DNA from: Escherichia coli
GTDB lineage: Bacteria > Pseudomonadota > Gammaproteobacteria > Enterobacterales > Enterobacteriaceae
Length of the DNA stretch: 64,000 nucleotides
Strand: one strand, 5' to 3'
Assembly: GCF_003790525.1 (NCBI RefSeq)
Contig: NZ_CP033635.1
Positions 27,156-45,396 of this stretch are shown piece by piece. The translations under genes were made by a program, and so were the position numbers. A model generated the notes under the pieces. That model had not been told where the DNA came from. It did no database searches and saw only the letters and a program-made list of their open reading frames with translations. Within the stretch, counting starts at the first letter, position 1. Every line of letters starts with the position of its first letter.

Positions 27156-27169
27156 GGTGTTTACTCCGT

Positions 27170-27948: not shown

Positions 27949-27951
27949 GCG

Positions 27952-28155
27952 TTACTCCCACAGATTGACAGTTTCAGCCACGGGCGCGGTCTGAACGTCG
28001 GGCAGTTCGACGGCGGTGCCATGTGGCAGCACCGCACCCAGTTCAGCCAGTCCCGGATTTGCGACGAGCACGGTCTCAACCACGCCCTCAGTGCGCCCGT
28101 AATACCGGACACAAATGGCGTCGAGCGTGTCGCCCTGTAGCGCAAAGGTCTTCAT
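27952..28155 (-). CDS. X: Tail protein X
   Basis: 67 aa from MKTFALQGDTLDAICVRYYGRTEGVVETVL...; P2 gpX length. Confidence 0.85.
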   Translation of the reverse strand: MKTFALQGDTLDAICVRYYGRTEGVVETVLVANPGLAELGAVLPHGTAVELPDVQTAPVAETVNLWE

Positions 28156-28664: not shown

Positions 28665-28763
28665 GACTACCTCTGAAAAGTCGGGCGGTGGACGCCGGTG
28701 CAATGTCAGGTAATTCACCCTCACTGACCGGCGTGCCGCCCTGGCGCGGGGCGCATTCGGTTG

Positions 28764-29507
28764 TTAACTGGCTTTCTTTTTCGGGCGTCCACGTTTTGCC
28801 GGTGTCACGCTCCGGGTCTTACGCGGGGTACGGGTGGCCGCTTTTGGCTGCGGCTCCGGCTTCGGTTTCAGCTCCCGCTCCAGTCGTTCAATCTCTTTTT
28901 TGACGCCTGCCTGACAGTCGAGCTGTGTCGCACGTTGCAGGTGAGCCAGCGCACCGGCGGCATCACCAGCGTCACGCAGAAACAGACCGGTGATTTTGTG
29001 CAGCTTTGCGCGCACTTCATCAGGCATGTCAGCCGTGGCGGTCAGTTCAATGGTCTCCGTCAGCAGGCGGGTATCCACAGACTCACCGGCAGCGTGAGCA
29101 CGCATGGCCGCGAGCGCCACCTCCTCGGTGAACATGTACGGCGGGGGGCGGCGGTGTTTACCCGGCATGGTCAGACCGTACTTCAGGGCATAACGGGCAA
29201 TCTCCAGCGCACCGGCAATATCGCCGGTATCCAGACGCCACAGCATGACCGTCATCAGAATGTCATCCTGTGCACCTTTGCCCTGCTCCAGCACGCCGTT
29301 CACCCACGGCAACCAGAACGGCAGCAGTTCGCGTTTTTTCGCGGCCTTCAGCTCTTTTGAATAAATCGCTTTCAGTGTGCGCTGGTCTGCGGCCAGCTTG
29401 ACCAGCATCTGCTCATAGACAGTTGCATGTCGCAGCGGGGCGGCTTCCCGCTGCGCGGTCATCGCTGCCGAGACCCGCATCATGTGGCGCTGTGCGGGAC
29501 TCGTCAT
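28764..29507 (-). CDS. M: Terminase small (endonuclease) subunit M
   Basis: 247 aa, P2 gpM length and position. Confidence 0.85.
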   Translation of the reverse strand: MTSPAQRHMMRVSAAMTAQREAAPLRHATVYEQMLVKLAADQRTLKAIYSKELKAAKKRELLPFWLPWVNGVLEQGKGAQDDILMTVMLWRLDTGDIAGALEIARYALKYGLTMPGKHRRPPPYMFTEEVALAAMRAHAAGESVDTRLLTETIELTATADMPDEVRAKLHKITGLFLRDAGDAAGALAHLQRATQLDCQAGVKKEIERLERELKPKPEPQPKAATRTPRKTRSVTPAKRGRPKKKAS

Positions 29508-29510
29508 CGG

Positions 29511-30584
29511 TCACGCTCCCGGCTCTGCGGTCGCCCTGGCCGGTGTGGAGAAATCACCGACCTTAATTTTTTCCACCAGACAACCGGCGGCGTAGTCTTC
29601 CACCACGTAATCAATGTTCATTGACTCGTAGTTCTCCACGCGGTCGAGTTTCGGGTTTTCCACAATCACGCGGCGATGGCTGTCATCCATGTAGTAGATG
29701 GACAGGTTTTCCAGCTTCGTGATGAGCATCGCATCCGCCGGGAAGTACGGGACGCGTACCGCTGGCAGGTTGCCGATGCGTTTCTGGCTGATGATGACGT
29801 CAGCGGCCAGCATTTCGCTGTTGTCCTGCTCCTTGTTGACGATGGGAAAATACTTGTCCGCCAGTAGCTGACGTCCCACAATCACCACAAGGTCAGGGTC
29901 TTCCTGATACCACGGCTCAATCAGGTTGTTGGTCGCATCCATCACCAGTGCATCAAGGCTGGCATAATCACCGCCCTTACCCACGCGGATGACCTCAGAG
30001 GTGGTGTGCCCTTCCTCGTCAGTGACCTTGCTCATCACGCGCGCCGGGGCTTCATTGCGGTATTTCTGCAGCCAGCCGACCGCCACATCCTGCAGCATCG
30101 GATTGCTGCTGCGGTCAGAGGTTTCGGCACGCTTCACGCCGTTAAAACCGGCCATGATGAAATCAAGGGACTGGCGTTTGATAATGGCGTTACGGACACG
30201 GAGCTGGAAATCCTGATAACGCGCCCACAGGTCCAGCGTTTTGTAGCGGATATAAAAATCGAAGTTAATCTGGTCGCATTCGTACTTGTTTGACGCCAGC
30301 TTCGAGAAGTCCTTCGGCTGACGCTCGGTGCCACCGGCGGTGTCGGTGGTGCTGGCGATGGAGCCGGTGACACCAATACCAATTTTTTCCCCTTTCATTT
30401 CGCTGACCGGCACAATGTTGATGCGGGTCAGAAAGTCAGAGGACTCCTGCATGGTGTTCATCAGGGTCTGGGTGACCGACGGTTCAACGGTGAATTTTTT
30501 CGACACATCACCGGCGTCGATGCCGTTCAGTTCGGCAACACGGGACAGGTAGGCATTAAATTTAAAGCGGGTTTCCTGGCGCAT
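29511..30584 (-). CDS. N: Major capsid protein N
   Basis: 357 aa, P2 gpN length and position. Confidence 0.9.
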   Translation of the reverse strand: MRQETRFKFNAYLSRVAELNGIDAGDVSKKFTVEPSVTQTLMNTMQESSDFLTRINIVPVSEMKGEKIGIGVTGSIASTTDTAGGTERQPKDFSKLASNKYECDQINFDFYIRYKTLDLWARYQDFQLRVRNAIIKRQSLDFIMAGFNGVKRAETSDRSSNPMLQDVAVGWLQKYRNEAPARVMSKVTDEEGHTTSEVIRVGKGGDYASLDALVMDATNNLIEPWYQEDPDLVVIVGRQLLADKYFPIVNKEQDNSEMLAADVIISQKRIGNLPAVRVPYFPADAMLITKLENLSIYYMDDSHRRVIVENPKLDRVENYESMNIDYVVEDYAAGCLVEKIKVGDFSTPARATAEPGA

Positions 30585-30642
30585 AGTTTTTCCTGAAATT
30601 AAGGGTTAATCGTGAAGGTTTTCCCGGACTGACTGACGCCGG

Positions 30643-31497
30643 TCAGCAGTTCGTCATCAGGGCGTCACCGCCACCGCCGGTGGCTTTGCTGCGGCGCTGC
30701 TGGGTCAGACTTTCGGTGTGGTCGAGACTGTTTTTCAGGCGGGTGAATGCCTGACTGGTTTCATCCGCCCTGTCAGTCACATCCTGCTTAAGTGCGGAAA
30801 AGGCGGTTTCCATCTCAGCAAGGCGCTGCTCAGTGGCGCTCAGTTTTTCCTGCACATGCTCAGCGACAGCGGTCACCGCTTCATGCACGTCATTCAGACG
30901 GGCGTCATCGCTGGCCTGTTTGCGGCCAAAAATGGATTTCACCTTTTCGGTCAGGGCGGTGAACACGGTTTCAGGCAGGTCTTCAAATTCCAGCTCAACG
31001 GGCGTTGCCACTGAAATCAGGTTTTCAGGGCTTAATTTGAAGCGGTTCAGGGGGTTGTGTTTTGCCGTGCGGCAGAATTCCAGATATTCCGTGCCGAGGC
31101 TTGCCGGGTCATCGGTGACGGCCAGACCCACCAGATAACATTTGCCGGTGTTGGCAAAGTTCGGCTGAATTTCCATTGAGGTGTAGACCTTCTGTGCGGC
31201 CTTGTTCATCGCGATAAGGTCATCGGTCGGGGTGATTTTCGCAAACAGCGCCCATTTGCCTTTCAGCGCCGAATCATCGTCAATCTTTTCGGCCTTCAGT
31301 TCGACCACATCGCCATAACGTTTAAAAATGCCGTCAGGCAGGATGCCTCGCAGATGTTCCAGGTTAATACGGCAACCATAGACACGCGGGTCAAAGGTTT
31401 CCGCCATTTCCTGAATATCCTGCGCACTGATGACACGCCCGTCACAGGTGTCACCCTCAACGCCGATACGAAAGAATTTTGAGACTTTTTTTGCCAT
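30643..31497 (-). CDS. O: Capsid scaffolding protein O
   Basis: 284 aa from MAKKVSKFFRIGVEGDTCDGRVISAQDIQEMAETF...; P2 gpO length. Confidence 0.85.
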   Translation of the reverse strand: MAKKVSKFFRIGVEGDTCDGRVISAQDIQEMAETFDPRVYGCRINLEHLRGILPDGIFKRYGDVVELKAEKIDDDSALKGKWALFAKITPTDDLIAMNKAAQKVYTSMEIQPNFANTGKCYLVGLAVTDDPASLGTEYLEFCRTAKHNPLNRFKLSPENLISVATPVELEFEDLPETVFTALTEKVKSIFGRKQASDDARLNDVHEAVTAVAEHVQEKLSATEQRLAEMETAFSALKQDVTDRADETSQAFTRLKNSLDHTESLTQQRRSKATGGGGDALMTNC

Positions 31498-31670
31498 TGT
31501 CAGGAGTCCTGAATAGTGATTAGAGGAGTCACATGTCGGCATCAGTTTCCCGACGATGCGCATCCTCCGCCATCAGTCCCGGATGGCTTATCACTGACAC
31601 AACAGCACCTTAGCGAATCGCGGGGCGCGACTCAGTAGCCTTGCCGTGTATTCATCACGGCGAGGTATTC

Positions 31671-33443
31671 ATGACCATCACCACAGACACCACTCTTTTA
31701 CACGACCCGCGTCGTCAGGCGGCGCTGCTGTACTGGCAGGGGTTTTCCGTGCCGCAGATTGCCGCCATGTTGCAGATGAAACGCCCGACGGTGCAGAGCT
31801 GGAAACAGCGCGACGGCTGGGACAGCGTTGCCCCCATCAGCCGTGTCGAAATGAGTCTGGAAGCGCGGCTGACCCAGCTCATCATCAAACCGCAGAAAAC
31901 CGGCGGTGACTTCAAGGAAATTGACCTGCTGGGACGCCAGATTGAACGACTGGCACGGGTCAACCGCTACAGTCAGACCGGCAACGAGGCAGACCTTAAT
32001 CCGAACATCGCTAACCGCAACAAAGGCGGGCGGCGCAAACCGAAAAAGAATTTTTTCAGCGACGAAGCCATCGAAAAGCTGGAGCAGATTTTCTTTGAGC
32101 AGTCTTTCGACTATCAGTTGCACTGGTATCGCGCCGGGCTTGAGCACCGCATCCGCGATATCCTGAAATCCCGCCAGATTGGCGCAACGTTTTATTTTTC
32201 CCGCGAGGCGCTGCTGCGTGCCCTGAAAACCGGTCATAACCAGATTTTTCTGTCGGCCAGTAAAACGCAGGCGTATGTGTTCCGCGAATACATCATCGCC
32301 TTTGCCCGGCTGGTTGACGTTGACCTGACCGGTGACCCGATTGTCCTGGGCAATAACGGCGCAAAACTGATTTTTCTCGGCACCAACTCCAACACCGCGC
32401 AGAGCCATAACGGCGACCTGTACGTCGACGAGATTTTCTGGATCCCGAATTTTCAGGTACTGCGTAAGGTGGCATCAGGTATGGCCTCACAGAGTCACCT
32501 GCGCTCGACCTATTTCTCCACCCCGTCCACGCTGGCGCACGACGCCTACCCGTTCTGGTCGGGTGAACTGTTTAACCGGGGACGCGCCAGCGCCGCCGAA
32601 CGCGTGGAAATCGACGTCAGTCATAACGCCCTTGCCGGTGGGCTTCTCTGTGCGGACGGCCAGTGGCGGCAGATTGTCACCATTGAGGACGCCCTGAAAG
32701 GCGGCTGCACGCTGTTCGACATTGAGCAGCTCAAACGCGAAAACAGCGCCGACGATTTTAAAAACCTGTTCATGTGTGAATTTGTTGACGACAAGGCGTC
32801 GGTATTCCCGTTCGAGGAGCTGCAACGCTGCATGGTCGACACGCTGGAAGAATGGGAAGACTATGCGCCGTTTGCCGCCAATCCGTTCGGCTCCCGCCCG
32901 GTATGGATTGGTTACGACCCGTCACACCGTGGCGACAGCGCCGGATGCGTGGTGCTGGCACCGCCGGTGGTGGCCGGAGGTAAATTCAGAATACTTGAGC
33001 GTCACCAGTGGAAAGGCATGGACTTTGCCACTCAGGCGGAATCCATCCGCAAACTCACCGAAAAATACAACGTCGAATACATCGGAATTGATGCCACCGG
33101 CCTCGGTGTCGGCGTGTTCCAGCTCGTGCGCTCGTTCTATCCCGCCGCGCGCGATATCCGCTACACGCCGGAAATGAAAACCGCAATGGTGCTCAAGGCA
33201 AAAGACGTCATCCGCCGTGGCTGTCTGGAATATGACGTCAGCGCCACCGACATCACCAGCTCGTTCATGGCTATCCGCAAGACCATGACCAGCAGCGGAC
33301 GCAGCGCCACCTATGAGGCCAGCCGTAGCGAGGAAGCCAGCCACGCCGACCTCGCCTGGGCGACCATGCACGCCCTGTTAAATGAGCCACTCACCGCCGG
33401 TATCAGCACCCCGCTGACATCCACCATTCTGGAGTTTTACTGA
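31671..33443 (+). CDS. P: Terminase large (ATPase) subunit P
   Basis: 590 aa from ATG 31671 (MTITTDTTLLHDPRRQAALLYWQGFSVPQIAAM...); ORF-track start at 31641 is a TTG extension. Confidence 0.85.
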   Translation: MTITTDTTLLHDPRRQAALLYWQGFSVPQIAAMLQMKRPTVQSWKQRDGWDSVAPISRVEMSLEARLTQLIIKPQKTGGDFKEIDLLGRQIERLARVNRYSQTGNEADLNPNIANRNKGGRRKPKKNFFSDEAIEKLEQIFFEQSFDYQLHWYRAGLEHRIRDILKSRQIGATFYFSREALLRALKTGHNQIFLSASKTQAYVFREYIIAFARLVDVDLTGDPIVLGNNGAKLIFLGTNSNTAQSHNGDLYVDEIFWIPNFQVLRKVASGMASQSHLRSTYFSTPSTLAHDAYPFWSGELFNRGRASAAERVEIDVSHNALAGGLLCADGQWRQIVTIEDALKGGCTLFDIEQLKRENSADDFKNLFMCEFVDDKASVFPFEELQRCMVDTLEEWEDYAPFAANPFGSRPVWIGYDPSHRGDSAGCVVLAPPVVAGGKFRILERHQWKGMDFATQAESIRKLTEKYNVEYIGIDATGLGVGVFQLVRSFYPAARDIRYTPEMKTAMVLKAKDVIRRGCLEYDVSATDITSSFMAIRKTMTSSGRSATYEASRSEEASHADLAWATMHALLNEPLTAGISTPLTSTILEFY

Positions 33444-34477
33444 TGAGCAAGAAAAAAGGGAAAACACCGCAACCTGCGGCAAAAAAAATGACCGCCAGCG
33501 CCCCGAAAATGGAGGCATTCACCTTTGGTGAGCCGGTGCCGGTACTCGACCGCCGTGACATTCTGGATTACGTCGAGTGCATCAGTAACGGCAGATGGTA
33601 TGAGCCACCAGTCAGCTTTACCGGTCTGGCAAAAAGCCTGCGTGCTGCCGTGCATCACAGCTCACCGATTTACGTCAAACGTAACATTCTGGCCTCAACG
33701 TTTATCCCACACCCGTGGCTTTCTCAGCAGGATTTCAGCCGCTTTGTGCTGGATTTTCTGGTATTCGGTAATGCGTTTCTGGAAAAGCGTTACAGCACCA
33801 CCGGTAAGGTCATCAGACTGGAAACCTCACCGGCAAAATATACCCGCCGTGGCGTGGAGGAGGATGTTTACTGGTGGGTGCCGTCCTTCAACGAGCCGAC
33901 ACCTTTCGCGCCCGGCTCCGTGTTTCACCTGCTGGAGCCGGATATTAATCAGGAGCTGTACGGTCTGCCGGAATATCTCAGCGCCCTTAACTCTGCCTGG
34001 CTGAATGAGTCGGCCACGCTGTTCCGCCGCAAGTATTACGAAAACGGCGCTCATGCCGGATATATCATGTACGTCACTGATGCCGTGCAGGATCGCAACG
34101 ATATCGAAATGCTTCGCGAAAACATGGTGAAGTCGAAAGGCCGCAACAACTTTAAAAACCTGTTTCTCTATGCCCCGCAGGGGAAAGCTGACGGCATTAA
34201 AATTATCCCGCTCAGTGAAGTGGCAACGAAGGACGATTTTTTTAATATCAAAAAAGCCAGCGCCGCTGACCTGCTGGACGCGCACCGCATCCCCTTTCAG
34301 TTGATGGGCGGCAAGCCGGAGAACGTCGGGTCGCTGGGTGATATTGAGAAAGTAGCAAAGGTCTTTGTCCGCAATGAGCTTATCCCGTTACAGGACAGGA
34401 TCCGCGAGATAAACGGCTGGCTCGGTCAGGAGGTCATCCGATTTAAAAACTACTCACTGGACACTGACAACGGCTGA
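33443..34477 (+). CDS. Q: Portal protein Q
   Basis: 344 aa; start overlaps the P stop (TGATG); P2 gpQ length. Confidence 0.9.
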   Translation: MSKKKGKTPQPAAKKMTASAPKMEAFTFGEPVPVLDRRDILDYVECISNGRWYEPPVSFTGLAKSLRAAVHHSSPIYVKRNILASTFIPHPWLSQQDFSRFVLDFLVFGNAFLEKRYSTTGKVIRLETSPAKYTRRGVEEDVYWWVPSFNEPTPFAPGSVFHLLEPDINQELYGLPEYLSALNSAWLNESATLFRRKYYENGAHAGYIMYVTDAVQDRNDIEMLRENMVKSKGRNNFKNLFLYAPQGKADGIKIIPLSEVATKDDFFNIKKASAADLLDAHRIPFQLMGGKPENVGSLGDIEKVAKVFVRNELIPLQDRIREINGWLGQEVIRFKNYSLDTDNG

Positions 34478-34482
34478 ACATC

Positions 34483-34504
34483 GCCGCCTGCGGGCGGCTT
34501 TTTT
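34483..34504 (+). terminator. Rho-independent terminator after Q
   Basis: Hairpin gccgcctgcgggcggc followed by tttttt. Confidence 0.7.
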
Positions 34505-34646
34505 ACACCCCGTCATCACGCCCTCACACGTTCGCCACTGTACAAAACACCCCGCAGACACACCAACGCCCCGGCAGGCCGACTAAACGCCATCACGACG
34601 CGCTCAGACGCTGAAAAAATAAAATCAGCACCACCGCCAGCGCGCA

Positions 34647-34665
34647 GTGCTTTCCCCGCCTCGCC
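34647..34665 (-). other. cos site (19-nt cohesive end)
   Basis: Reverse complement of gtgctttccccgcctcgcc is GGCGAGGCGGGGAAAGCAC, matching the P2 cohesive-end sequence as recalled; lies between Q and the cargo locus as in P2. Confidence 0.7.
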
Positions 34666-34892
34666 CGCCCGCTTCATGGGTCGGTTTTGATGCAATTCCA
34701 AAAGCCGTCCAAACTCTCTTAGGCTAAATGTCCAACGAGAAAATAGTTCTTTGAATGTGAATGCATTTTAATGCAGAGTTATGCCCAGCATTTTTGTACA
34801 CTTCGATGTATCAAATGCGCTGCAAACGATCAAATATGGATGTTTTATCAAGCATCCCCCAAAAGATATTTACATCATCCCATGAGGTTAAG

Positions 34893-35966
34893 ATGGATAA
34901 CAAAATCGTAGAAATTGAGACAAATAAGCTTGATTTTGACCCTAAAAACCCACGTTTCTTTCGTCTCAATGATGCCAGTAACGCTGCAACAGTCATTGAG
35001 GAAATGTTAGATGACGAAAGTGTCCACGATCTAATGCTATCAATCGGTCAGCAAGGTTACTTTCCTGGAGAACCTTTATTGGCAGTAAAAAGCAATGGAA
35101 ACTACATCGTGGTTGAGGGAAACAGACGCTTAGCTGCTGTAAAGTTGCTCAATGGAGATCTGCTTCCTCCAAAAAGAAAACTTAAAGGTGTGCAAGAAAT
35201 CATTGATGATACTACCAATAAACCTAAGAAGCTTCCCTGCATCATTTATGAAAACCGAGAGGATGTACTGAGATATATCGGTTATCGTCATATAACTGGG
35301 GTCAAAGAATGGGACTCATTATCTAAAGCCAAATACCTTAAAGAGTTATGTGATACTTTTTATTCACATGAGCCTAAAGAGATAGTATTAAAAAATCTGG
35401 CTCGTGAGATTGGGAGTAAACCACATTATGTTGCAACACTTCTCACTGCACTGAACTTATATGAAGTCGCGCATGACCATGAGTTTTTTAATTTACCCAT
35501 GAAGGCTTCTGACGTGGAATTTTCATATATAACCACAGCTTTGGGATATTCAAAAATCACAAACTGGTTAGGTCTACAGGATAAAAAGGATTTTTTAGAC
35601 CCAAATTTAAATGAAGAAAACCTTAAGCGTTTATTCTCTTGGTTTTTTGTGCCTGACCAACAAGGTAGAACCATCATCGGTGAGTCTCGAAGAATAAAAG
35701 ATATTGCAGCAGTGGTTGAGAAACCCGAAGCAATTGAAATTCTCATGAAAAGTTCAAACTTGGATGAAGCATATCTATATACCAGCGGAGAAAGAGAAGC
35801 ATTAGATAAAGCACTAAACGCAGCTAGTGTTAAATTAAGAGTAGTTTGGGATATGCTACTTAAAGCTAAAGAATTAACATTAGAGCATGAAGAGGCTGCA
35901 TCTGAAATTTTTGAGATGTCAAAAAATATTAGAAATCAGATCAGAAGCAAAAGGGAGGATGATTGA
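34893..35966 (+). CDS. ParB/Srx-like N-terminal domain protein (cargo gene 1 at the old/tin position)
   Basis: 357 aa from ATG 34893 (RBS gagg upstream); ParB-box-like motifs LDFDPKNPRF and IVVEGNRRLAAVKLL; AT-rich. Confidence 0.7.
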   Translation: MDNKIVEIETNKLDFDPKNPRFFRLNDASNAATVIEEMLDDESVHDLMLSIGQQGYFPGEPLLAVKSNGNYIVVEGNRRLAAVKLLNGDLLPPKRKLKGVQEIIDDTTNKPKKLPCIIYENREDVLRYIGYRHITGVKEWDSLSKAKYLKELCDTFYSHEPKEIVLKNLAREIGSKPHYVATLLTALNLYEVAHDHEFFNLPMKASDVEFSYITTALGYSKITNWLGLQDKKDFLDPNLNEENLKRLFSWFFVPDQQGRTIIGESRRIKDIAAVVEKPEAIEILMKSSNLDEAYLYTSGEREALDKALNAASVKLRVVWDMLLKAKELTLEHEEAASEIFEMSKNIRNQIRSKREDD

Positions 35967-35970
35967 GATT

Positions 35971-36996
35971 ATGATTACAAATCTTGATTCAATGCCTTCT
36001 AATGAGCCTTATTTATGGGCTGATTATATTGAGATATTGGCCTTAACTAATATCGACAGGTCATTCAGTCGAGGAGACCTATATAGCACACTGCAAGCTC
36101 AACCCGAAGCAGTACTAGCTGAAACAGATGAAGCAGAAGAAGAGGGCGTTTATGATGTTGATGATGAAAATGATACGCCTGTACGCAAGAGAACAAAACG
36201 AAGTGTTAGTCGAGCATATACTGACAGAAAGTGGAGCTATGCGATAGGCTTCATACGACAACGCATTGATTTATTTGGGGATAGTTACCCTTTTACTTTA
36301 TCAGAAGACAACGATACTGTAGAGTTACGTGATATATCAGAAAAGCCACTGGAACATTTAGAAAGACTATATTTAGCTTTACTAATCTGTGCTAACATAA
36401 AATATGTCAACATAATGAGCAGAAGAGAGATAACGCGCAGTTTTGAACTAATTAGTTTACCTATTTTTGAAAGCCTAATGCCTAGCGGTAGCATAATAAA
36501 AGCATGCTGGGCTTCTGGTGGTCAAGCGGCCCCTTACACTGGAACTCTATATAATAAATTTAAGAGTATTGCTTCCGATATCCGTTGCACAGCGAACTTC
36601 AAAGAACGAGATTTCAGTCGAGGAAATAGTGGTGACGGAGGCCTTGACATAATTGCCTGGCATCCAATGGGAGATCAACGAGATGCCATCCCTATTTCTT
36701 TTGTTCAGTGTGGCTGTTCTCAAGAAGAGTGGGAAGCGAAGCAGCTTGAGGCCTCACCTGCGATGCTCTACAGTAAATTCCCCGTAGCTCACCGATGGGC
36801 AACTTATTATTTCTTACCTCAAGATCTACGATGGATAGATGGTGAGTGGGCGCATAAAAATAAGTTAGGCGATGCTATTTTTGTTGATCGCCTAAGATTA
36901 ATCAATTTAACCAGAGCATCTGATAATATTGATCACAGTCAAAATATTAGCTATCTAGATATCATCCTTGATCCTTCCAGCGCGATCGCTGCTTAA
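35971..36996 (+). CDS. Hypothetical protein, possible PD-(D/E)xK-type nuclease (cargo gene 2)
   Basis: 341 aa; starts 4 nt after gene 1 (alternative ATG 35959 overlaps its stop); contains GDGGLDIIAW ... ISFVQCGCSQEEWEAK, resembling an Mrr-type catalytic core but lacking the canonical QCK lysine. Confidence 0.6.
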   Translation: MITNLDSMPSNEPYLWADYIEILALTNIDRSFSRGDLYSTLQAQPEAVLAETDEAEEEGVYDVDDENDTPVRKRTKRSVSRAYTDRKWSYAIGFIRQRIDLFGDSYPFTLSEDNDTVELRDISEKPLEHLERLYLALLICANIKYVNIMSRREITRSFELISLPIFESLMPSGSIIKACWASGGQAAPYTGTLYNKFKSIASDIRCTANFKERDFSRGNSGDGGLDIIAWHPMGDQRDAIPISFVQCGCSQEEWEAKQLEASPAMLYSKFPVAHRWATYYFLPQDLRWIDGEWAHKNKLGDAIFVDRLRLINLTRASDNIDHSQNISYLDIILDPSSAIAA

Positions 36997-37931
36997 TCCC
37001 ATAAATCTGGAAGGTTTCTAGCAACCGCCTCAAACAATGGAGGCGGTACTGCATTACCTACCACAGTATATTTCATATTAATAGAAGCCCGTTCAGTTTC
37101 TGGGAAAATTAAATCCCCAAAACCTTGTAAAATAGCAGCCTCTCGATAGCTAAACCTACGAGCTGGTGCATCCGAAGTAAATTGCCACTTATCAGGTCCC
37201 AATTTTTCTAATGTTGGACTTATTGGATGTAGAGGCATATGTCTAGGATTTGCAACAATTGTTTTAGATATCTGATCCCAATCTTGCCTACGGTTTCGCG
37301 ATAGATAATACCAATGAAAATCGGCGTCATAAAACTCGCCAACAGGCCAAACAGGCATATGCCCAATAGCATCACGAATTGTGGAATATGGTGTCAAACC
37401 ATCACCATGTGTTGGTTTTGGAAATTTGTATGTAATACCGTAGTCCTTTCGTATTCCTACGATAAAGATTCGCTTCCTATCTTGGGATACCCCATAATGG
37501 GACGCATTCAGAATTTGCGAGCTTACTGTATAACCTGCTTCTTCGAAAACTTTGAATTGATCCTTTAATAAATGCTCAAAGTTACGCCTTACCATACCAG
37601 AGACATTCTCTACAATGAATGCTTTTGGCTTAATTTTACTCAAAGCACGGGCAAACTCTAAATATAGTGTATTAATCTTTCTATCTGCCTTCCTTGCCCC
37701 ACCTTGACTAAATCCTTGGCAAGGATAGCATCCGATGAGCAACTCAGCAGAAGGGAACGACTGGAGCCCTGAGATATCGCCCAAAATGTAGTCAGTTTCA
37801 GGATGGTTTTCTAAGTAAACGTCCCTTGCGTAAGGCAAAATATCATTTGCCATAAGCACATTGAAACCTGCGTTCAAAACTCCCGCATCAGAACCACCAC
37901 ATCCAGAAAAAAGTGAAACTACAGTTGGCAT
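36993..37931 (-). CDS. DNA cytosine-5 methyltransferase, HaeIII/HhaI-type small m5C MTase (cargo gene 3)
   Basis: 312 aa with motif I FSGCGG, motif IV PCQGFS, motif VI ENV, motif VIII QDRKR, motif X GNAVPPPL, plus YYLSRNRRQDW resembling the M.HaeIII variable region; convergent with gene 2 (4-bp overlap). Confidence 0.85.
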   Translation of the reverse strand: MPTVVSLFSGCGGSDAGVLNAGFNVLMANDILPYARDVYLENHPETDYILGDISGLQSFPSAELLIGCYPCQGFSQGGARKADRKINTLYLEFARALSKIKPKAFIVENVSGMVRRNFEHLLKDQFKVFEEAGYTVSSQILNASHYGVSQDRKRIFIVGIRKDYGITYKFPKPTHGDGLTPYSTIRDAIGHMPVWPVGEFYDADFHWYYLSRNRRQDWDQISKTIVANPRHMPLHPISPTLEKLGPDKWQFTSDAPARRFSYREAAILQGFGDLIFPETERASINMKYTVVGNAVPPPLFEAVARNLPDLWD

Positions 37932-38173
37932 TGACCCCTCCTAAAAACCGACCGCGTATTATAGCGAAACACCCCGTTGGGAAAAGCTAGATTTTGCCAA
38001 GTCTTGATATTCTCACGTTTTAGTAGTTGTGGCCATCTTTAACGAGAAAAAGATAAAATTGACTTCTCATTAATTTTCAATAGGTTTAATTGTAAGCTCA
38101 AACTAACGCCTCGCGACACTCGTTATTCAACCCCGCCAGCCCTGAAAACAAGTTTCACGACTGGCGGCGTTCT

Positions 38174-38323
38174 CTATCGTCTGCGTTGTGGTGGCGCAAC
38201 TCTGGACTGACCGATATGGTTAAACCGCCCGTAATTATCCCGGACTATTTCGGCACACCCGACCAGCTCATCGGGCGTCAGATTTTCGTTGACCATAATC
38301 CGCTGTAAACGCTGAACAATAGC
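38174..38323 (-). CDS. Small hypothetical ORF downstream of the orf91-position gene
   Basis: About 49 aa from MAIVQRLQRIMVNENLTPDELVGCAEIVRDNYGRF...; start and reality uncertain. Confidence 0.3.
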   Translation of the reverse strand, partial: AIVQRLQRIMVNENLTPDELVGCAEIVRDNYGRFNHIGQSRVAPPQRRR

Positions 38324-38379
38324 CATCAGCTTGATATTTTTAGTTTTATGGTGCGGTATCTCGCCTGGTATTCTGTGCA

Positions 38380-38832
38380 TTATCCAAGCCACCCGTTTTG
38401 CTGTGCACGCTCCATCTGTTCATCTGAATAGTTCCATGCTCCATCCGTGGCAACCATTGCCCCGCCAGACATCCCCGTCTCTGGTTCATACATAACAGCA
38501 AGGCCGAGCTGATGCATAATTTCATGATTAATTCTGAATACCAGGCCACGCTCACTAAGTTCTTTCCAGTTCACAATCTCATATGCGCCTGTATTAAGCA
38601 GCTCAATACTTAGCAAGACATAATCTTCCAGCCAGTCTGACAGGTCAGTAACATCTGTTATCCGGGCTTCAACATTTCGCCCCGTATACACACCCTGCAC
38701 CCATTCATACAAAATCAACGTGTCCCCGCGCTCATAATTACGGTCATTTTTCCGGAACTCTGCACGTTTCTTTCCTTCCAGCACAAGGTCGAAATATTTT
38801 GCGTGCAGCTTTACCTCGTGAATTTTTGCCAT
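38380..38832 (-). CDS. ASCH/DUF3850-like protein at the orf91 position
   Basis: 150 aa from MAKIHEVKLHAKYFDLVLEGKKRAEFRKNDRNYERGDTLILYEW...; start overlaps the A stop by one nucleotide. Confidence 0.6.
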   Translation of the reverse strand: MAKIHEVKLHAKYFDLVLEGKKRAEFRKNDRNYERGDTLILYEWVQGVYTGRNVEARITDVTDLSDWLEDYVLLSIELLNTGAYEIVNWKELSERGLVFRINHEIMHQLGLAVMYEPETGMSGGAMVATDGAWNYSDEQMERAQQNGWLG

Positions 38833-41117
38833 TATGTCCACTCCATTACTGTTGAGAATCCCGGCCACTCATCAGCGACCGGATACGTGAATTTTTTCCC
38901 GTCATAATTTACGGTCGCGCCACGCGCCAGCGCCTCAAGCTCCCATCGCTGCGGCCTGATACCGTTCTGAGCAAGGTCAACGCGGATACGGGTAATTTGC
39001 GTTCGTTCCGACCGGGTCAGTCTGGCCGATGGCGCTATTTCATGTGGTTTTAACGGGCTTCCGTTTCTCTGCTGACGATTTGGTGTTCTCAGTTCGTGTT
39101 TTAATGCACCTCTGAGCGCCCTCACGACCTCTGGCTCATTCCATTCGATAACACCGTCATCAACCAGATTAAGCACGGCTGCGGCATGTTCATAAGGTGT
39201 GGGAGCCGGTAACGAAGTATCACTGCCGGTGAGCTTTCCACAGTTATTGACAGGACTCCGAGGCGCGGCGATGCCGCTTTTTAAAGTCAAAGGCTCAACG
39301 ACCGGAACTTTCGGCACAATGCGCCAGTCCGTCGTTCTGGTGATATGAATATGACGCGCGCCGAGATGCGGCGCGTAAATACCGACCACTCTCTCGACTT
39401 CTTCCTCGTACTCGTTAACGTCACTCGACGGGCTACGGGCAACCCTGACAGTCTGACAATCGCGCGGGACATTTGCCCCACCCTGCGCGCTGATATACAA
39501 CGCAAAATCACCACTGTCTGCGGCAGCGCGAGCAGCCTCGACGCGTTCGTCAAACTCATCAGCAATACTGACGCCGCGAGGTAATTTGCGTAGTTCACGG
39601 TAAGCCCCCATTGTCGGTAGGCCAACCGTTTTAAATTGCGGAATGCGCCACGTTGACGCCCATGCGGTAACAGCCGCGGCAGTGTCTTTCAGCGGCCTGC
39701 CGGTATCGTTATCGAGCTGACCATCCAGTGCATAGCCGTCGATGTTTTTTGAAATGTATTTCGCGATATACCCCGCAGCACCGCCCCGATTAAGGTGTTT
39801 TGCCTGAAAACGGTTTCGCGCGGCTCCTCTTTCGTCGCCATCCTCTTTGAGCGCATAGCGACGCATGATTTCGATAATCTGGTTACGCTGGCGCGAATTA
39901 CAAAAAAGCATCATATGCCAGTGCGGCGTTCCGTCGTGGTGTGGCTCGACGACACGCAAACCGTAGACCTGTAAATCATTATCCTTGAATGCCGTGCGCA
40001 TCAGGCTCCAGATACGGCAGAGATAACGCTGCGCATCCTTTGGATTAAATGCCTCATCGTTCCAGCCGTGATTAAGCTGCACGGTTTTACTTTCGCCTTT
40101 TCCTACCTGACGTGTCGGGTGATACTTTGACGGCGCGGTCAGCGTGATAAACATCCCCACATCACCCTCTGCAGCGGCGTAACGCTCAATACCGGCAATG
40201 GTGTTCATCAGCTCCATCCGGCGAATTTCAGGATTAGAAATACTGCCCATCACCTTACTGATAAGGTCGATGCGCTCGCCGGTTTCCCTGTTTTCAAGGT
40301 CACACGATTTAAGAAATTCCAGATTTGCCTGGCGGCGCGCACGCACATCACGAATGGCATGTTTACTGGCATAAGGTGAACGGTCTTTATTGACCTCCCC
40401 GACAGCAATCAGTAACGCCTCATGCCAGCGCATACGCTGGCCTTTAAGCTGTCTAATCCACCACTCATCGTTAAACAGGCGGGCAATGGCAGAATATGCC
40501 TGCCTCGTGGTCATCTGCCCTTTACGGTATTTTCTCCAGTACAGCGGGGAAATATTGAAAGCACGTGCAGCGCCAGCAACATGACCATACAGGTGAGCCT
40601 GCGCCTCATCCGTAAACAGCGATTCTTTTTCGCCATGGGCATCCACCCAGGCATCGCAGAGTTCCTCATACATCATGAAAAGCTGCGATGAGATACGGGC
40701 GGCAAACTTTTTCAGCTCCTTGTCATTCATTCCCGGCAGGCGCGCATAGTGGTCACGCTCTGCCAGAAACAGCAACGACGCGTCGGTGTTCATTTCATGG
40801 CGCTGATTCACACGCTCAATGCGCGGCCATAAACGACGCTGAAAAGTGGATGTGAGGAAATAAAACCCGTGCACCGGGCTTTTATTGCGCCGGATGTAGT
40901 CATAGCGTGAAGTAAACAGCGAGCGCAAAAAGTAAGGCAGGCGGTTAATCGTGGATAAAACACCTTGCACCTGACGCATCTCATCACGTGTAAGGGGTCT
41001 TTCGCGCCCGACGGCCTCGCGTGGCGCGTTCCATGCATAAGCACCGGTAAACATCTTACCGGTGCCTGCGGCAAATGCTGACGGAGGGACAAAACGCCCG
41101 GAGGCTTTAACGGCCAT
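38832..41117 (-). CDS. A: Replication initiation protein A (rolling-circle nicking endonuclease)
   Basis: 761 aa from MAVKASGRFVPPSAFAAGTGKMF...; P2 gpA length. Confidence 0.85.
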   Translation of the reverse strand: MAVKASGRFVPPSAFAAGTGKMFTGAYAWNAPREAVGRERPLTRDEMRQVQGVLSTINRLPYFLRSLFTSRYDYIRRNKSPVHGFYFLTSTFQRRLWPRIERVNQRHEMNTDASLLFLAERDHYARLPGMNDKELKKFAARISSQLFMMYEELCDAWVDAHGEKESLFTDEAQAHLYGHVAGAARAFNISPLYWRKYRKGQMTTRQAYSAIARLFNDEWWIRQLKGQRMRWHEALLIAVGEVNKDRSPYASKHAIRDVRARRQANLEFLKSCDLENRETGERIDLISKVMGSISNPEIRRMELMNTIAGIERYAAAEGDVGMFITLTAPSKYHPTRQVGKGESKTVQLNHGWNDEAFNPKDAQRYLCRIWSLMRTAFKDNDLQVYGLRVVEPHHDGTPHWHMMLFCNSRQRNQIIEIMRRYALKEDGDERGAARNRFQAKHLNRGGAAGYIAKYISKNIDGYALDGQLDNDTGRPLKDTAAAVTAWASTWRIPQFKTVGLPTMGAYRELRKLPRGVSIADEFDERVEAARAAADSGDFALYISAQGGANVPRDCQTVRVARSPSSDVNEYEEEVERVVGIYAPHLGARHIHITRTTDWRIVPKVPVVEPLTLKSGIAAPRSPVNNCGKLTGSDTSLPAPTPYEHAAAVLNLVDDGVIEWNEPEVVRALRGALKHELRTPNRQQRNGSPLKPHEIAPSARLTRSERTQITRIRVDLAQNGIRPQRWELEALARGATVNYDGKKFTYPVADEWPGFSTVMEWT

Positions 41118-41382
41118 ATGAGCCAAAAGCCTCTGAACAACGCCTGCTGAGTTGCTCAACCTGCGCGTTTAAATCAGCAAAAGACTTTGCGCTTCCGGTC
41201 AGAATATCGTGATGCATCAGGCCGGAAACGAGCTGGCTTAATTTCGGGTAATAACCAACCACCGCCAGCCATTCCTGACCGGCGTTTTTACCGCTTTCAG
41301 CTCTCTTTTTCTCGTGGAGAATAAACTGAAAGCTGTCACTGGTAACGACATAACGTTCGCCAATTTCAATACGAATACTCAT
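41107..41382 (-). CDS. P2 orf83-like small protein
   Basis: 91 aa ORF in the conserved early-operon position, tightly packed with neighbours. Confidence 0.6.
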   Translation of the reverse strand: MSIRIEIGERYVVTSDSFQFILHEKKRAESGKNAGQEWLAVVGYYPKLSQLVSGLMHHDILTGSAKSFADLNAQVEQLSRRCSEAFGSYGR

Positions 41383-41603
41383 GCCGTTCTCCGGTAATGT
41401 TTGTTTTTTGCTTCAAAGACTGACTGACAGGAAACACAACGCGTGGCTGACGGATAAGCCGCACGACGGGCAGCAGGTATTGGCGCGTCACACTCTTCGC
41501 AAACCAGCGCAGAAGCACCGCAATGTTTTACCCTTGCCGCGTTAATCTGGCGCTCCAGTAATTCAGCCTGTTGTTCCTGAATAAAATCTACGTTGTCCGG
41601 CAT
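41379..41603 (-). CDS. TraR/DksA-family zinc-finger protein (P2 orf82-like)
   Basis: 74 aa with four-Cys arrangement CEECDAPIP...CVSCQ. Confidence 0.65.
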   Translation of the reverse strand: MPDNVDFIQEQQAELLERQINAARVKHCGASALVCEECDAPIPAARRAAYPSATRCVSCQSVFEAKNKHYRRTA

Positions 41604-41908
41604 TACCAGTTCCTTTTGTCGTTAAGGTTTTTAAATTCATCAGCGCAATAGCTGGCGATTTCTGTCGTTAATTTCGTCAGTTCATCCACGGAGGAGATTT
41701 GCTTGTGAAACACAGCGCGTTTAACAAGTAAATTGACCACATCAGACAGGAGGTTTAATTCGTTCTGATAAATCGCGATAACAGACTCAGTTATTTCGCG
41801 TTTTTCTTTATCAAGACCAAGTTGAATAAGAGACAAATCGCCATTTTTCATAACGGCGATTTTTAGGGCGTTATTCAGTAATACAACTGAACGAGAACAG
41901 GACATCAA
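41603..41908 (-). CDS. P2 orf81-like small protein
   Basis: 101 aa ORF, positional. Confidence 0.55.
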
Positions 41909-42129
41909 AGCACCTCCCCGCGAGACAATCCGATATTGTGAAATTTTTCCGACTCCTGACTGAGCAGCTCGACTATCTCCACGCGGGATAACTCCGCCTT
42001 TGTGATGTGGCGAATCATGGCGTCAAGATGAGAAGAAAAGCGCGTCGCTGCGTCGGCCTGTGCTTCGGTTCTGGCCTGTTGCAGCAGTAATGCGTATTTA
42101 CCGCACTGATTTTCAGAAACTGTATGCAT
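41905..42129 (-). CDS. P2 orf80-like small protein
   Basis: 74 aa ORF, positional. Confidence 0.5.
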
Positions 42130-42192
42130 GACTTTCTCCAGGCAAAAAGAAGCCCCGCACGATTAAGTGCGTTAAAAACTCTGGTTAATTAC

Positions 42193-42693
42193 TTAATGCA
42201 GATATTGCTCTGGTTTTACCGACGTCAGAATTGTCGGTGCATACTCAAACAGGCTGAATAATTCACGTAATGCACGGAATAAAGCATCACGCCAGTAACA
42301 TGATTCTTCATTAATTCGCCAGTATGGCTGGTTGAATTCTTTTTCAGTCAGTCGTGCGTGCATAAATAAAGTGCGACGCTGACTGACTGTTAAAAAACTA
42401 ATATATGCATACTCACTTGCGCCAACCTGACGGCGTTTTGAGAATGCGCCACGCAATTCATCAATTGCACAAACCAGTCGTTCACGTTCGACGTCGTTCA
42501 TTTCTTCAAAACGCATCGTTGCGTGACGCTGTTTTAACTGTGCATGAAAGCAAACCGTTAGCCGTTCGCGCTCCATCATCTGATTATAATAATCACATGT
42601 ATCCTGCCAGCGAGGGACGGCAAGATGCTTGCCAATTATCCGGCGCATAGCTGCTGGCTGTTTTTCAACGAGATTAAGCGTCATCACTGTCAT
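42193..42693 (-). CDS. B: Replication protein B (helicase loader)
   Basis: 166 aa, P2 gpB length and position. Confidence 0.8.
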   Translation of the reverse strand: MTVMTLNLVEKQPAAMRRIIGKHLAVPRWQDTCDYYNQMMERERLTVCFHAQLKQRHATMRFEEMNDVERERLVCAIDELRGAFSKRRQVGASEYAYISFLTVSQRRTLFMHARLTEKEFNQPYWRINEESCYWRDALFRALRELFSLFEYAPTILTSVKPEQYLH

Positions 42694-42887
42694 TTCCAGC
42701 CCCTCCGGCTTTTCAGAAAGGTCAGAGCCTTTTTTAACGGACTCTGTTTTTTGGTGCGGATAATGATTCCCTTACGCCCCTTACCGTGGGTGATGGTGAA
42801 GTCAATCGCCCTGGGGCTTTCGTTACGCAGTAACTGAGCAATACAACGCGGTTCACTCATAATCACAACCCCATCCACAAAAGCCAT
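42690..42887 (-). CDS. P2 orf78-like small protein
   Basis: 65 aa ORF between cox and B. Confidence 0.5.
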   Translation of the reverse strand: MAFVDGVVIMSEPRCIAQLLRNESPRAIDFTITHGKGRKGIIIRTKKQSPLKKALTFLKSRRGWK

Positions 42888-43135
42888 GCATCACGCTGTT
42901 CAACTGGTCGGTTATAAAACGCCTCTCGTACAGCGCGATTAAACTCTGGAATGAAAACCCACTTCTCACCGACACGAGCGTTCGGCTTACTTGGATCACG
43001 AAGCTCAATAACTGGCAACTTATTCTCTTTTACCATCTTGACTACAGCCGTTTCTGGCTTACCAAGTAACTCTGCAAACTTAACCGTATGTACCGCATCA
43101 ATCGGGTACTGAATCACATAGTCATTGACTTCCAT
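42863..43135 (-). CDS. cox: Cox-like excisionase / early-promoter repressor
   Basis: 90 aa; first gene of the early operon, divergent from C; P2 Cox is about 91 aa. Confidence 0.7.
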   Translation of the reverse strand: MEVNDYVIQYPIDAVHTVKFAELLGKPETAVVKMVKENKLPVIELRDPSKPNARVGEKWVFIPEFNRAVREAFYNRPVEQRDAWLLWMGL

Positions 43136-43287
43136 TGATTAGCCCTTTTTGCTTTCGTGTTACCCTTATTAGATCCAGTCCCTTCTAGGTCGCACCTGTC
43201 CTTTCTAGGGACTGGCTAACACACTCAAAAGGTCACCAATACACAACCTTTTGACGGGAATATAAGTCACCAATAGGTTACTGTCAA
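43136..43287. promoter_or_regulatory. Immunity switch region (divergent C and cox promoters with operator repeats)
   Basis: Intergenic region between divergent C and cox; direct repeats ccagtcccttctagg (43175..43189) and cctgtcctttctaggg (43195..43210). Confidence 0.6.
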
Positions 43288-43581
43288 ATGCAGACATTCG
43301 AAAAACTGAAAGCGATTAGGAAAGCAGAAGGCTTAACACAGGCGAAATTCAGCGAAATTAGCGGGATAGCTCTAGGAACAGTCAAAAATTACGAAAGTGG
43401 GCATAAAGACCCTGGTCTCAGCATCGTTATGCGAGTCACAAATACGCCTTTATTTAAAAAATATACGCTCTGGTTAATGACTGGTGATACGTCACCACAA
43501 GCTGGTCAGATCGCGCCGGCTCTCGCACACATTGGGCAAAAACCAACAGAATCAGACCACTCCGAAAAACAGACTGGTTAA
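43288..43581 (+). CDS. C: Immunity repressor C (HTH)
   Basis: 97 aa, MQTFEKLKAIRKAEGLTQAKFSEISGIALGTVKNYESG...; HTH_XRE-like. Confidence 0.8.
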   Translation: MQTFEKLKAIRKAEGLTQAKFSEISGIALGTVKNYESGHKDPGLSIVMRVTNTPLFKKYTLWLMTGDTSPQAGQIAPALAHIGQKPTESDHSEKQTG

Positions 43582-43650
43582 CACTCTATAAACATTACAT
43601 TTTCACCATTTGTTACCAAGATGGTGAATACAGCGTCAGAGGGCTTTCTT

Positions 43651-44631
43651 ATGTCAATTAAGAAGCTCGATGATGGACGCTATGAAGTGGACATTAGACC
43701 TCGCGGTCGCGACGGAAAACGCATCCGCAGGAAATTTGAAAGAAAAGCTGAGGCTGTAGCATTTGAGCGATACACAATCGCCTACGCCAGCCAGAAAGAA
43801 TGGGCAGGTCAGCGAGCAGATCGCAGAACTTTGAGTGAGTTGCTGAACATCTGGTGGAAATATCACGGGCAAAACCACGAGCATGGAACAAAAGAGTTTA
43901 ATCATCTGCTCAAAACCATCAGCGGCATAGGTGATATACCAGTGAGCCGGATGAGCAAAAGAGCTTTGATGGATTATCGTTCCATGCGACTACGTGATGG
44001 TATCAGTGCCGCAACGATAAACCGTGACATGTACCGATTATCCGGCATGTTCACAAAATTAATTCAATTGGATGAATTTTCCGGGCAACACCCAATTCAC
44101 GGACTGCCGCCACTGGCGGAGGCCAACCCTGAAATGACGTTCCTGGAAAAAGCAGAAATCGAAAAACTGTTAAATGTTTTGGATGGTGATGACTTACTTG
44201 TCGCACTTTTATGTCTGAGCACTGGAGGAAGATGGACGGAAGTTGCCACGCTAAAACCAGCACAGATTACAAATTGCAGGGTTACCTTCCTGAAAACCAA
44301 AAACGGTAAAAAGCGAACCGTGCCGATTTCTGAGGAACTGGAGAAAAAAGTTAAAGAGGAGGCCAGCGCTAAATTATTCAAAGTTGATTATGAGAAGTTT
44401 TGCGGGATTTTACGCAGAGTGAAGCCAGATATACCACCCAATCAGGCAACCCACATCCTGCGGCATACATTCGCAAGCCATTTCATGATGAATGGGGGCA
44501 ATATAATCGCACTGCAACAGATTCTGGGACATGCGAGCATTCAGCAGACGATGGCCTATGCGCACCTTGCGCCTGACTACCTGCAAAATGCCGTCGCGCT
44601 GAATCCTCTAAAAGGCGGAGTGACGTTATAA
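43651..44631 (+). CDS. int: Tyrosine integrase
   Basis: 326 aa from MSIKKLDDGRYEVDIRPRGRDGKRIRRKF...; C-terminal catalytic region ...HILRHTFASHFMMNGGNIIALQQILGHASIQQTMAYAHL; ORF-track start at 43621 is a 10-codon extension. Confidence 0.85.
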   Translation: MSIKKLDDGRYEVDIRPRGRDGKRIRRKFERKAEAVAFERYTIAYASQKEWAGQRADRRTLSELLNIWWKYHGQNHEHGTKEFNHLLKTISGIGDIPVSRMSKRALMDYRSMRLRDGISAATINRDMYRLSGMFTKLIQLDEFSGQHPIHGLPPLAEANPEMTFLEKAEIEKLLNVLDGDDLLVALLCLSTGGRWTEVATLKPAQITNCRVTFLKTKNGKKRTVPISEELEKKVKEEASAKLFKVDYEKFCGILRRVKPDIPPNQATHILRHTFASHFMMNGGNIIALQQILGHASIQQTMAYAHLAPDYLQNAVALNPLKGGVTL

Positions 44632-44645
44632 ATTTCCCTTCTGAG

Positions 44646-44664
44646 TGTCCACATAGTGTCCACA
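44646..44664. promoter_or_regulatory. Putative integrase arm-type binding sites, right arm
   Basis: tgtccacatagtgtccaca, matching the left-arm copy at 9841..9860. Confidence 0.5.
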
Positions 44665-44746
44665 CTCTCAGAACTTTGTAGCCCTTCCAGTCCCTTATAG
44701 GTTTTCTTAAGTTACTGTTTTCTTACGGAAACCGATGTAAGTGATT

Positions 44747-44793
44747 GATAAAAAAAACCCCCACATCATGTGGGGGAAGACAGGGATGGTGTC
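44747..44793. repeat. attR core, identical to attL; carries the cpxP/CpxQ terminator hairpin
   Basis: 47-bp identity with 9746..9792; contains cccccacat-c-atgtggggg next to an A/T run. Confidence 0.85.
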
Positions 44794-44812
44794 TATGGCA
44801 AGGAAAACAGGG
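44750..44812 (-). ncRNA. cpxQ: CpxQ sRNA (processed cpxP 3'UTR) with intrinsic terminator
   Basis: Minus-strand sequence ...uuuuccuugccauagacaccaucccugucuucccccacaugaugugggggUUUUUUUU immediately downstream of the cpxP stop; matches CpxQ as recalled. The 5' end is approximate. Confidence 0.6.
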
Positions 44813-44816
44813 TTTA

Positions 44817-45317
44817 CTACTGGGAACGTGAGTTGCTACTACTCAATAGCTTCAACGATGAACTTTTTTGCCATTGCGTCACGTCGCGCAACTGCTCCAT
44901 TCGTTGTTGATGTTTCTCGTTTAAAACCGCTTGCTGCTCCGGCGTTAACAGGCGATACATTTGGTTGCGGACTTTTGCCATCTCAACCTGACGAGCAATT
45001 TGCTCATTCGCCATTTTTTCTGCCTGTGCGCGCACAGCGTTTTCATCAAAATTTTCTGCGGTGACAAGGCGATGCATTGTCTCCAGTTCGCTAACATTAA
45101 CAGGAGGCTGTTCGTGCCGGGCCTGTTGCATAAGATCTCGCATCTGCTGACGCTGATGTTCGGTTAAACTTATGCCGTCGAACATATGGCTCTGCGTACT
45201 GCGCTGCGTAAGTTCTTCACCCGGATGCCAGTTATCGCCTGAACCGACTTCAGCAGCGTGGCTTAATGAACTGACTGCCAGCGTTGAGGCCATGACGGCA
45301 GCGGTAACTATGCGCAT
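44817..45317 (-). CDS. cpxP: Periplasmic stress adaptor/inhibitor CpxP
   Basis: 166 aa, [34 protein letters not shown]...; LTXXQ motifs. Confidence 0.9.
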
Positions 45318-45396
45318 CATTTGCTCCCAAAATCTTTCTGTCGCGATTCAACGATAGAGAGTTTACGATTCAGGCTGCAAACATGCGTCAGGGGGT

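Follow-up and report, generated by a model that had tools for sequence, protein, structure and literature searches.

Integration between cpxP and fieF is an established property of Wphi, a P2-like phage. The E. coli W genome paper lists the site as "cpxP-fieF: Wphi1 (P2)" (PMC3032704 Table 2) and records P2-like elements at the RNA genes rybB, cyaR and ssrA (PMC3032704), and Nilsson et al. placed the site of Wphi and L-413C at MG1655 position 4104392 (PMC3448106 Table 1). Prophages between cpxP and fieF have also been described in an O157 study and in a Salmonella Infantis preprint. In these Wphi papers the site is given by its flanking genes or by coordinates, and the small RNA (sRNA) CpxQ goes unnamed (PMC3032704; PMC3448106). 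Our literature search, which lacked Karlsson 2006, Liu 1999, and Chao and Vogel 2016, yielded no paper naming CpxQ as the Wphi attB; for cpxP in combination with P2-like elements it returned the E. coli W genome paper only.

In K-12 and Salmonella, CpxQ is released from the cpxP mRNA by RNase E, binds Hfq and represses nhaB, skp, cfa and others (PMC9438474, PMC6755755). The RNA is 58 nt long, with a processed 5′ end and a seed at that end (PMC6755755; PMC9438474), and its sequence is exceptionally conserved (PMC9438474). This conservation across Salmonella and E. coli makes the site well suited to phages that cross genera.

P2 itself provides a close parallel. In a direct check, the annotated 27-bp attP core of P2 proved to be the reverse complement of the last 27 nt of K-12 cyaR, and K-12 carries a P2 remnant, PR-X with ogrK, that is annotated as overlapping the cyaR 3′ end. 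At P2 locI, as at the locus described here, the att core coincides with the 3′ end, U-tract included, of an Hfq-dependent sRNA, and the two phages share a family and an arm-site consensus. The systems differ in that CyaR is encoded by a stand-alone gene whereas CpxQ derives from a 3′ UTR, and in core length, which is 27 bp in P2 and 47 bp here. They also have opposite orientations, the CyaR-proximal junction being on the ogr side and the CpxQ-proximal junction on the int side.

A more general precedent is integration at the 3′ ends of tRNA and tmRNA genes, exemplified by phage 186 in a tRNA-Ile gene and by Fels-2 and SopE-phi in ssrA. The resemblance to the present case is that crossover takes place inside an RNA gene, which is then regenerated by the 3′ remainder supplied by the element (186-type: PMC3448106). 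Unlike a tRNA or tmRNA gene, CpxQ is a regulatory sRNA as well as an mRNA 3′ UTR with its terminator, and both gene termination and the sRNA are restored. Genes for sRNAs have also been discussed as integration targets by Bobay et al. (PMC3603311), and at the transfer hot spots ryeA/ryeB in Salmonella, ryeE/cyaR and rybB, prophages likewise adjoin conserved sRNA genes (PMC3603311, PMC3032704). CpxQ is absent from the sRNA sets of those studies, in contrast to the present locus, where the overlap is resolved to the nucleotide.

Against this background, the view of the first-pass annotation that an sRNA terminator serving as attB is notable was overstated, since the site is the established Wphi attB (PMC3032704, PMC3448106) and sRNA genes had already been discussed as targets (PMC3603311). 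Both the site and the kind of site are known, and the biology is ordinary. Our additions are modest: a nucleotide-level equation of attB with cpxQ, and a single-nucleotide polymorphism (SNP) that shows which terminator copy is phage-derived. We conclude with high confidence that the locus holds a P2-like (Peduovirus) prophage with a Wphi-type integrase, inserted at the canonical Wphi attB, that this attB corresponds to the 3′ portion of cpxQ, which lies in the cpxP 3′ UTR, and that the 3′ end of the gene has been replaced in the manner known from tRNA and tmRNA genes.

The prophage between fieF and cpxP

The window, by which we mean the whole 64,000-nucleotide stretch of E. coli DNA that was analysed, yielded in a repeat search a 47-bp direct repeat, GATAAAAAAAACCCCCACATCATGTGGGGGAAGACAGGGATGGTGTC, whose copies at 9746-9792 and 44747-44793 are 100% identical and spaced 35,001 bp apart. 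To the left of the left copy lie fieF and, beyond it, pfkA; to the right of the right copy, beyond cpxP, are cpxR and cpxA. Between the two copies is the prophage, and its main features, with those of its left flank, are as follows (window coordinates).

8765..9667, minus strand: fieF CDS, ATG at 9667, from the ORF, RefSeq annotation and alignment to the K-12 fieF start
9746..9792, no strand assigned: att core at the fieF/ogr junction, 47 bp; hairpin and U-tract part host-derived as judged by SNP asymmetry
9793..44746, no strand assigned: prophage body, Peduovirus (P2-like, with Wphi-type int/att), from similarity to NC_070904 and Wphi
9841..9859, minus strand: arm-type Int sites on the ogr side, TGTGGACA and TGTGGACG
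9892..11317, plus strand: IS4, 1,426 bp, with a 13-bp target duplication CTCAACTGAGGGG at 9879-9891 and 11318-11330
11343..11561, minus strand: ogr (late activator), reading toward the fieF-side core; annotated in Wphi and in lysogens
43651..44631, plus strand: tyrosine integrase, reading toward the core and cpxP; the listed ORF starts at 43621, and 981-nt homologues are annotated in relatives
44646..44664, minus strand: arm-type Int sites on the int side, two direct TGTGGACA, conserved in Wphi, L-413C and others

Overall the prophage is closer to the sequenced Peduovirus OU784549/NC_070904 (99.4% identity over 24.7 kb) than to Wphi (96.4% identity over 93% of the query). Its ORFs follow the P2-type order, with ogr and D on the left and integrase, C, cox and gpA on the right. 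Tyrosine recombinase models match the integrase ORF, whose homologues are annotated in RefSeq as "phage integrase". The attP reconstructed from the two junctions is 100% identical to that of NC_070904, 99.2% identical to Wphi over 499 bp, 98.6% to fiAA91-ss and ~92% to L-413C, and with IS4 removed the region is collinear with the Wphi attP-ogr region. The prophage shares with Wphi, and also with L-413C and fiAA91-ss, the same 47-bp core, the arm repeats, the int/ogr arrangement and the cpxP-fieF site; it differs from Wphi by the IS4 in the ogr terminator. Both junctions and both sets of arm sites are intact, the P2-type arm-site consensus being tgTGGaCa (PMC3448106).

The bidirectional terminator just downstream of ogr has IS4 inserted precisely in its loop. 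The insertion adds 1.44 kb to the prophage and splits ogr from its terminator, although the terminator half that serves minus-strand transcripts persists at 9876-9891. Without IS4 the element measures 35,001 - 1,439 = 33,562 bp, which is the exact length of the OU784549/NC_070904 record. The ogr-att interval of strains AR216.2b and M217 holds IS150 instead.

Between the portal gene and gpA, at 34761-37931, the prophage carries three cargo genes, encoding a protein with a ParB N-terminal-like domain, a hypothetical protein and a Dcm-type cytosine methyltransferase; the same trio is annotated in the Wphi prophage of E. coli W. We take this position to be the known P2 accessory/defence hot spot. 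Two Rfam families scored above gathering elsewhere in the window, naRNA4 (REP-derived) at 47549-47626 downstream of cpxA and ES036 at 7503-7544 downstream of pfkA, and both are unrelated to the att site.

By the P2/lambda convention the int-adjacent junction is attL. The attL and attR labels assigned earlier to this prophage were merely positional, and under the convention it is the cpxP-side junction that becomes attL. We refer to the two junctions below by their neighbouring genes.

The history of the site could be read from genomes with and without a prophage. An empty site, reconstructed by joining the two outer flanks through a single core, is 100% identical over 847 bp to natural genomes, and 4,593 of 5,426 complete E. 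coli genomes contain it uninterrupted. Where the site is not empty, the match splits into query positions 1-447 and 401-847, which overlap by exactly 47 bp. The specific junction of a Wphi-type integrase, core and cpxP was found in 791 of the 5,426 (14.6%). The first-pass annotation had put forward, as a check on its interpretation, that prophage-free E. coli should carry an intact fieF-cpxP site; this is what the uninterrupted genomes and the perfect match of the reconstruction bear out.

The core is not restricted to E. coli prophages. At least 62 records in the phage collection contain it, with hosts in Escherichia, Salmonella and Yersinia, and so do 40 IMG/VR contigs. Wphi, L-413C, P24B2 and MET_P1_103_31 all have the core without a single change, in contrast to the arm spacer next to it, in which they differ. 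Representatives of three other Peduoviridae genera with unrelated arms, Salmonella phages SI7 and SEN4 and Escherichia phage ev239, share 45-46 bp of it (at positions 151-197 of loci L053, L054 and L055, respectively). One further contig, NZ_JBQJRQ010000002.1 (32,330 bp, E. coli strain 2020N21-246-1), has the core at 16242-16286 and no cpxP or fieF flanks; it may represent a P2-like genome, excised or episomal, that was assembled separately.

The att core and the CpxQ 3′ end

On the cpxP side the core lies within a compact arrangement of overlapping elements, which has a shortened counterpart at the fieF side.

44747..44793, no strand assigned: att core at the cpxP/integrase junction, 47 bp, exact repeat, its length matching the 47-bp overlap of split matches in occupied genomes
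44750..44776, minus strand: cpxP/CpxQ Rho-independent terminator, stem-loop 44758-44776 and U8 44750-44757; phage-derived DNA in this lysogen, as judged from the SNP mapping below
44750..44807, minus strand: full-length CpxQ sRNA gene, 58 nt, with 5′ seed, small hairpin, terminator hairpin and U8, from the fold and alignment to K-12 b4716
44817..45320, minus strand: cpxP CDS, from the ORF and RefSeq annotation under matches
9749..9792, minus strand: truncated CpxQ copy, nt 15-58 and no 5′ seed, preceded by phage P-arm DNA, with the host terminator ~80 bp upstream of the fieF start

The K-12 annotation describes cpxQ (b4716) as an ncRNA of 58 nt that starts 9 nt past the cpxP stop; the RNA was named in 2016. 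Aligned to the minus strand of the window at 44807..44750, K-12 cpxQ matches at 57 of 58 nt, and the lone difference is at nt 42, the third nucleotide of the terminator loop, which is C in K-12 and A in the window. The right core copy starts 23 nt beyond the cpxP stop codon. It comprises CpxQ nt 15-58, including the terminator and U-tract, plus 3 bp, and leaves the first 14 nt, the 5′ seed, outside. The entire cpxP 3′ UTR plus 3 bp corresponds to 44747-44816. The seed and the upstream cleavage context of CpxQ in the window are host DNA and are identical to K-12 by alignment, and the CpxQ next to cpxP in the lysogen is of full length. Compared with Salmonella records, the CpxQ region of the window is 100% identical over 68 nt.

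Within the core, a 19-nt hairpin, CCCCCACAT-C-ATGTGGGGG, occurs in the window solely at the two repeat copies, with 0 occurrences expected from shuffled sequence. When folded, each copy gives on the minus strand an 8-bp GC-rich stem with a 3-nt loop followed by U8, and a terminator scan called both as terminators; the CpxQ terminator has a predicted energy of -17.4 kcal/mol and a z-score of -2.7. The earlier reading of the 47-bp repeat at both prophage ends, as a sequence that contains the CpxQ terminator hairpin and its T-run, is in full agreement with the exactness of the repeat, the fold and the K-12 cpxQ alignment. That alignment also bears on the possibility, raised at the same time, that CpxQ maps elsewhere, which is not the case.

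At Rfam gathering thresholds no CpxQ family was matched in the window, and CpxQ is defined here from the K-12 annotation, not from Rfam. At relaxed thresholds there was a single notable hit: Hrs1 (RF02628), the Erwinia "Hfq-regulated sRNA 1", scored 44.5 bits against a gathering score of 56.4 on the plus strand at 44750-44822, antisense to CpxQ. The Hrs1 model begins with an A-run and continues with a hairpin, and the family looks like a CpxQ homologue that was put into Rfam on the wrong strand.

A terminator-loop SNP as a map of strand exchange

The nucleotide at which K-12 and the window differ, CpxQ nt 42, served as a marker (window positions 44766 and 9765; position 772 of the K-12 locus L045). 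The A of the window is also the Salmonella sequence and that of the phage attP cores read directly, and the K-12 allele, C, is present at 896 of the 4,593 uninterrupted sites (19.5%). On direct reading, lysogens AR216.2b, JX4-T and G8 all carry the K-12 allele on the fieF side and the phage allele on the cpxP side; the three differ in arm subtype, integrase allele and cargo genes, and represent at least two phage subtypes. Across the population, the K-12 allele occupies the fieF junction of about 150-170 lysogens, as estimated both from 1,052 - 896 and from 6 of 60 evenly spaced rows, counts that are not phylogenetically independent and within which two or three distinct prophage types were read directly. 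At the cpxP junction, 0 complete E. coli genomes have it, the top match being already one mismatch off. The frequency of the K-12 allele at the fieF copies of lysogens, ~19%, is similar to the 19.5% at empty sites.

The loop nucleotide on the cpxP side is always that of the phage and the one on the fieF side that of the host, which shows that strand exchange takes place on the cpxP side of nt 42. By the same reasoning it shows that the terminator in which cpxP and CpxQ end in a lysogen is phage DNA, and that the copy upstream of fieF is the original terminator of the host. In SI7, SEN4 and ev239, core identity on the cpxP side always stops at ...GGGATGGTG, and this common end narrows the exchange interval to 44767-44791, or CpxQ nt 17-41. 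The interval overlaps a candidate site.

44778..44794, no strand assigned: candidate crossover region, AGACA-GGGATGG-TGTCT, a 5-bp inverted repeat with a 7-bp spacer, equal to the first CpxQ hairpin

From the geometry alone, we propose that this motif is a core-overlap-core site with GGGATGG as a putative 7-bp overlap. The attP sequences of SI7, SEN4 and ev239 do not preserve its right-hand arm, TGTC(T). An alternative overlap, the centre of the terminator palindrome, CATCATG, was dropped, because the loop SNP segregates cleanly and hosts with the K-12 allele are lysogenised about equally often. These two observations place the loop outside the exchanged region and suggest that it may lie outside the sequence that must match between phage and host.

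Together these data are best explained by the following sequence of events at the Wphi attB. The integrase exchanges strands near the 5′ edge of the identity block, within CpxQ nt 17-41, the most probable position being the loop of the first hairpin. From the exchange point to 3 bp past the U-tract, attP supplies an exact copy of the host sequence. After integration, the cpxP-CpxQ transcript would keep the host's 5′ seed and take its 3′ part, with the terminator hairpin and U8, from the phage, and CpxQ would remain 58 nt long. The displaced host terminator stays beside fieF, now behind the phage P arm and the ogr terminator. The crossover is internal to the gene, with identity running on to 3 bp beyond the U-tract, the combination by which integration at the 3′ end of an RNA gene is recognised. 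Just past the U-tract, the lysogen differs from the empty site, and in about 150-170 genomes the phage allele has changed CpxQ nt 42 from C to A. The CpxQ gene proximal to cpxP is of full length, and the first-pass statement that integration regenerates an intact cpxP-CpxQ 3′ end holds on these grounds.

The extended core and the consequences of lysogeny

Replacement of the CpxQ 3′ end has to be weighed against the possibility that the overlap with CpxQ is incidental and that the identity block serves recombination, as a conserved and partly palindromic target of 45-47 bp, with no role in restoring the sRNA. The core does hold two inverted repeats suited to a tyrosine recombinase, and the exceptional conservation of CpxQ (PMC9438474), with 68 nt 100% identical in Salmonella, would make it a good target in any case. 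Departures from the sequence also occur: the SEN4 core has a stem change (A9C4 as opposed to A8C5) and the U-tract region of ev239 is altered, which indicates that changes in the U-tract part are tolerated by these two phages. Lysogens of either phage would end up with a modified CpxQ terminator, so CpxQ is not restored perfectly in every case. Yet strand exchange maps to the 25 bp on the cpxP side, and identity continues for ~20 bp further, to end 3 bp past the sRNA 3′ end, which is the pattern expected when the 3′ end of a gene is replaced. P2 at CyaR shows the same pattern, and the ~20-bp part is unchanged across five phages that have diverged from one another in the arm spacer beside it. 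On balance we consider an incidental overlap unlikely, and favour replacement of the CpxQ 3′ end, in which the additional identity is presumably kept by selection that preserves CpxQ and cpxP termination.

A different function for the core, on the other side of the prophage, was implied by the earlier suggestion that the phage places a second terminator copy upstream of fieF. A copy is indeed there; its supposed phage origin did not survive the SNP mapping, by which the hairpin and U-tract belong to the original host. Whether this copy shields fieF from prophage late and ogr transcription seems to us doubtful, if not quite as unlikely as the incidental overlap. Transcription of ogr and of the late tail operon, both on the minus strand, is directed toward fieF, and an 8-bp GC-rich stem with U8 makes for a strong terminator, but the host had this terminator upstream of fieF even before the phage integrated, and transcripts would meet the phage's own post-ogr terminator first, the minus-strand half of which is intact despite IS4. 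With the host terminator already in place and the ogr terminator ahead of it, the core copy could be at most a second barrier. The terminator being the host's own, the sequence upstream of fieF is still the native one beyond the crossover, and fieF expression is probably unaffected.

It is also conceivable that lysogeny changes sRNA regulation in the Cpx response, with CpxQ activity lowered or modulated either by int transcripts that read through CpxQ and cpxP in antisense or by a transcribed, seedless CpxQ that binds Hfq. From the int stop (44631) to the body of cpxP, no plus-strand intrinsic terminator is predicted, merely a weak 5-bp stem at 45024, so that transcription of int could extend in antisense over CpxQ and cpxP; when the phage is free, it would arrive at the bidirectional ogr terminator beyond attP. 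The truncated copy, for its part, retains the terminator and U8, which form an Hfq-binding module. Against these features, int transcript levels are low in P2-type lysogens, the minus strand upstream of the truncated copy has no promoter-like site, and the ogr terminator stands between ogr and that copy. Moreover, ~15% of E. coli genomes carry such prophages, and no Cpx phenotype was reported in the literature searched. We regard an effect of this kind as improbable. Still less probable, in our estimation, is its broadest form, in which the replaced CpxQ 3′ part, the convergent int gene and the seedless copy together could allow Wphi-type lysogeny to adjust the Cpx envelope-stress response through its non-coding arm in ~15% of E. 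coli strains. With phages of the SEN4 and ev239 types, the replaced part would differ in the CpxQ stem or U-tract.

Replacement of the CpxQ 3′ end, as the preferred reading, has several practical implications. In genome annotation, the "cpxP-fieF" hot spot is better described as the cpxQ gene, to be listed alongside cyaR (P2), rybB and ssrA. The natural SNP amounts to a free genetic map of strand exchange by the Wphi integrase. For work on CpxQ in natural isolates, it means that phage DNA often makes up the 3′ part of the sRNA gene, including its terminator, and that the locus contains a second, truncated copy. This is the standard site of a well-studied phage group, and it is occupied in about one-seventh of complete E. 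coli genomes.
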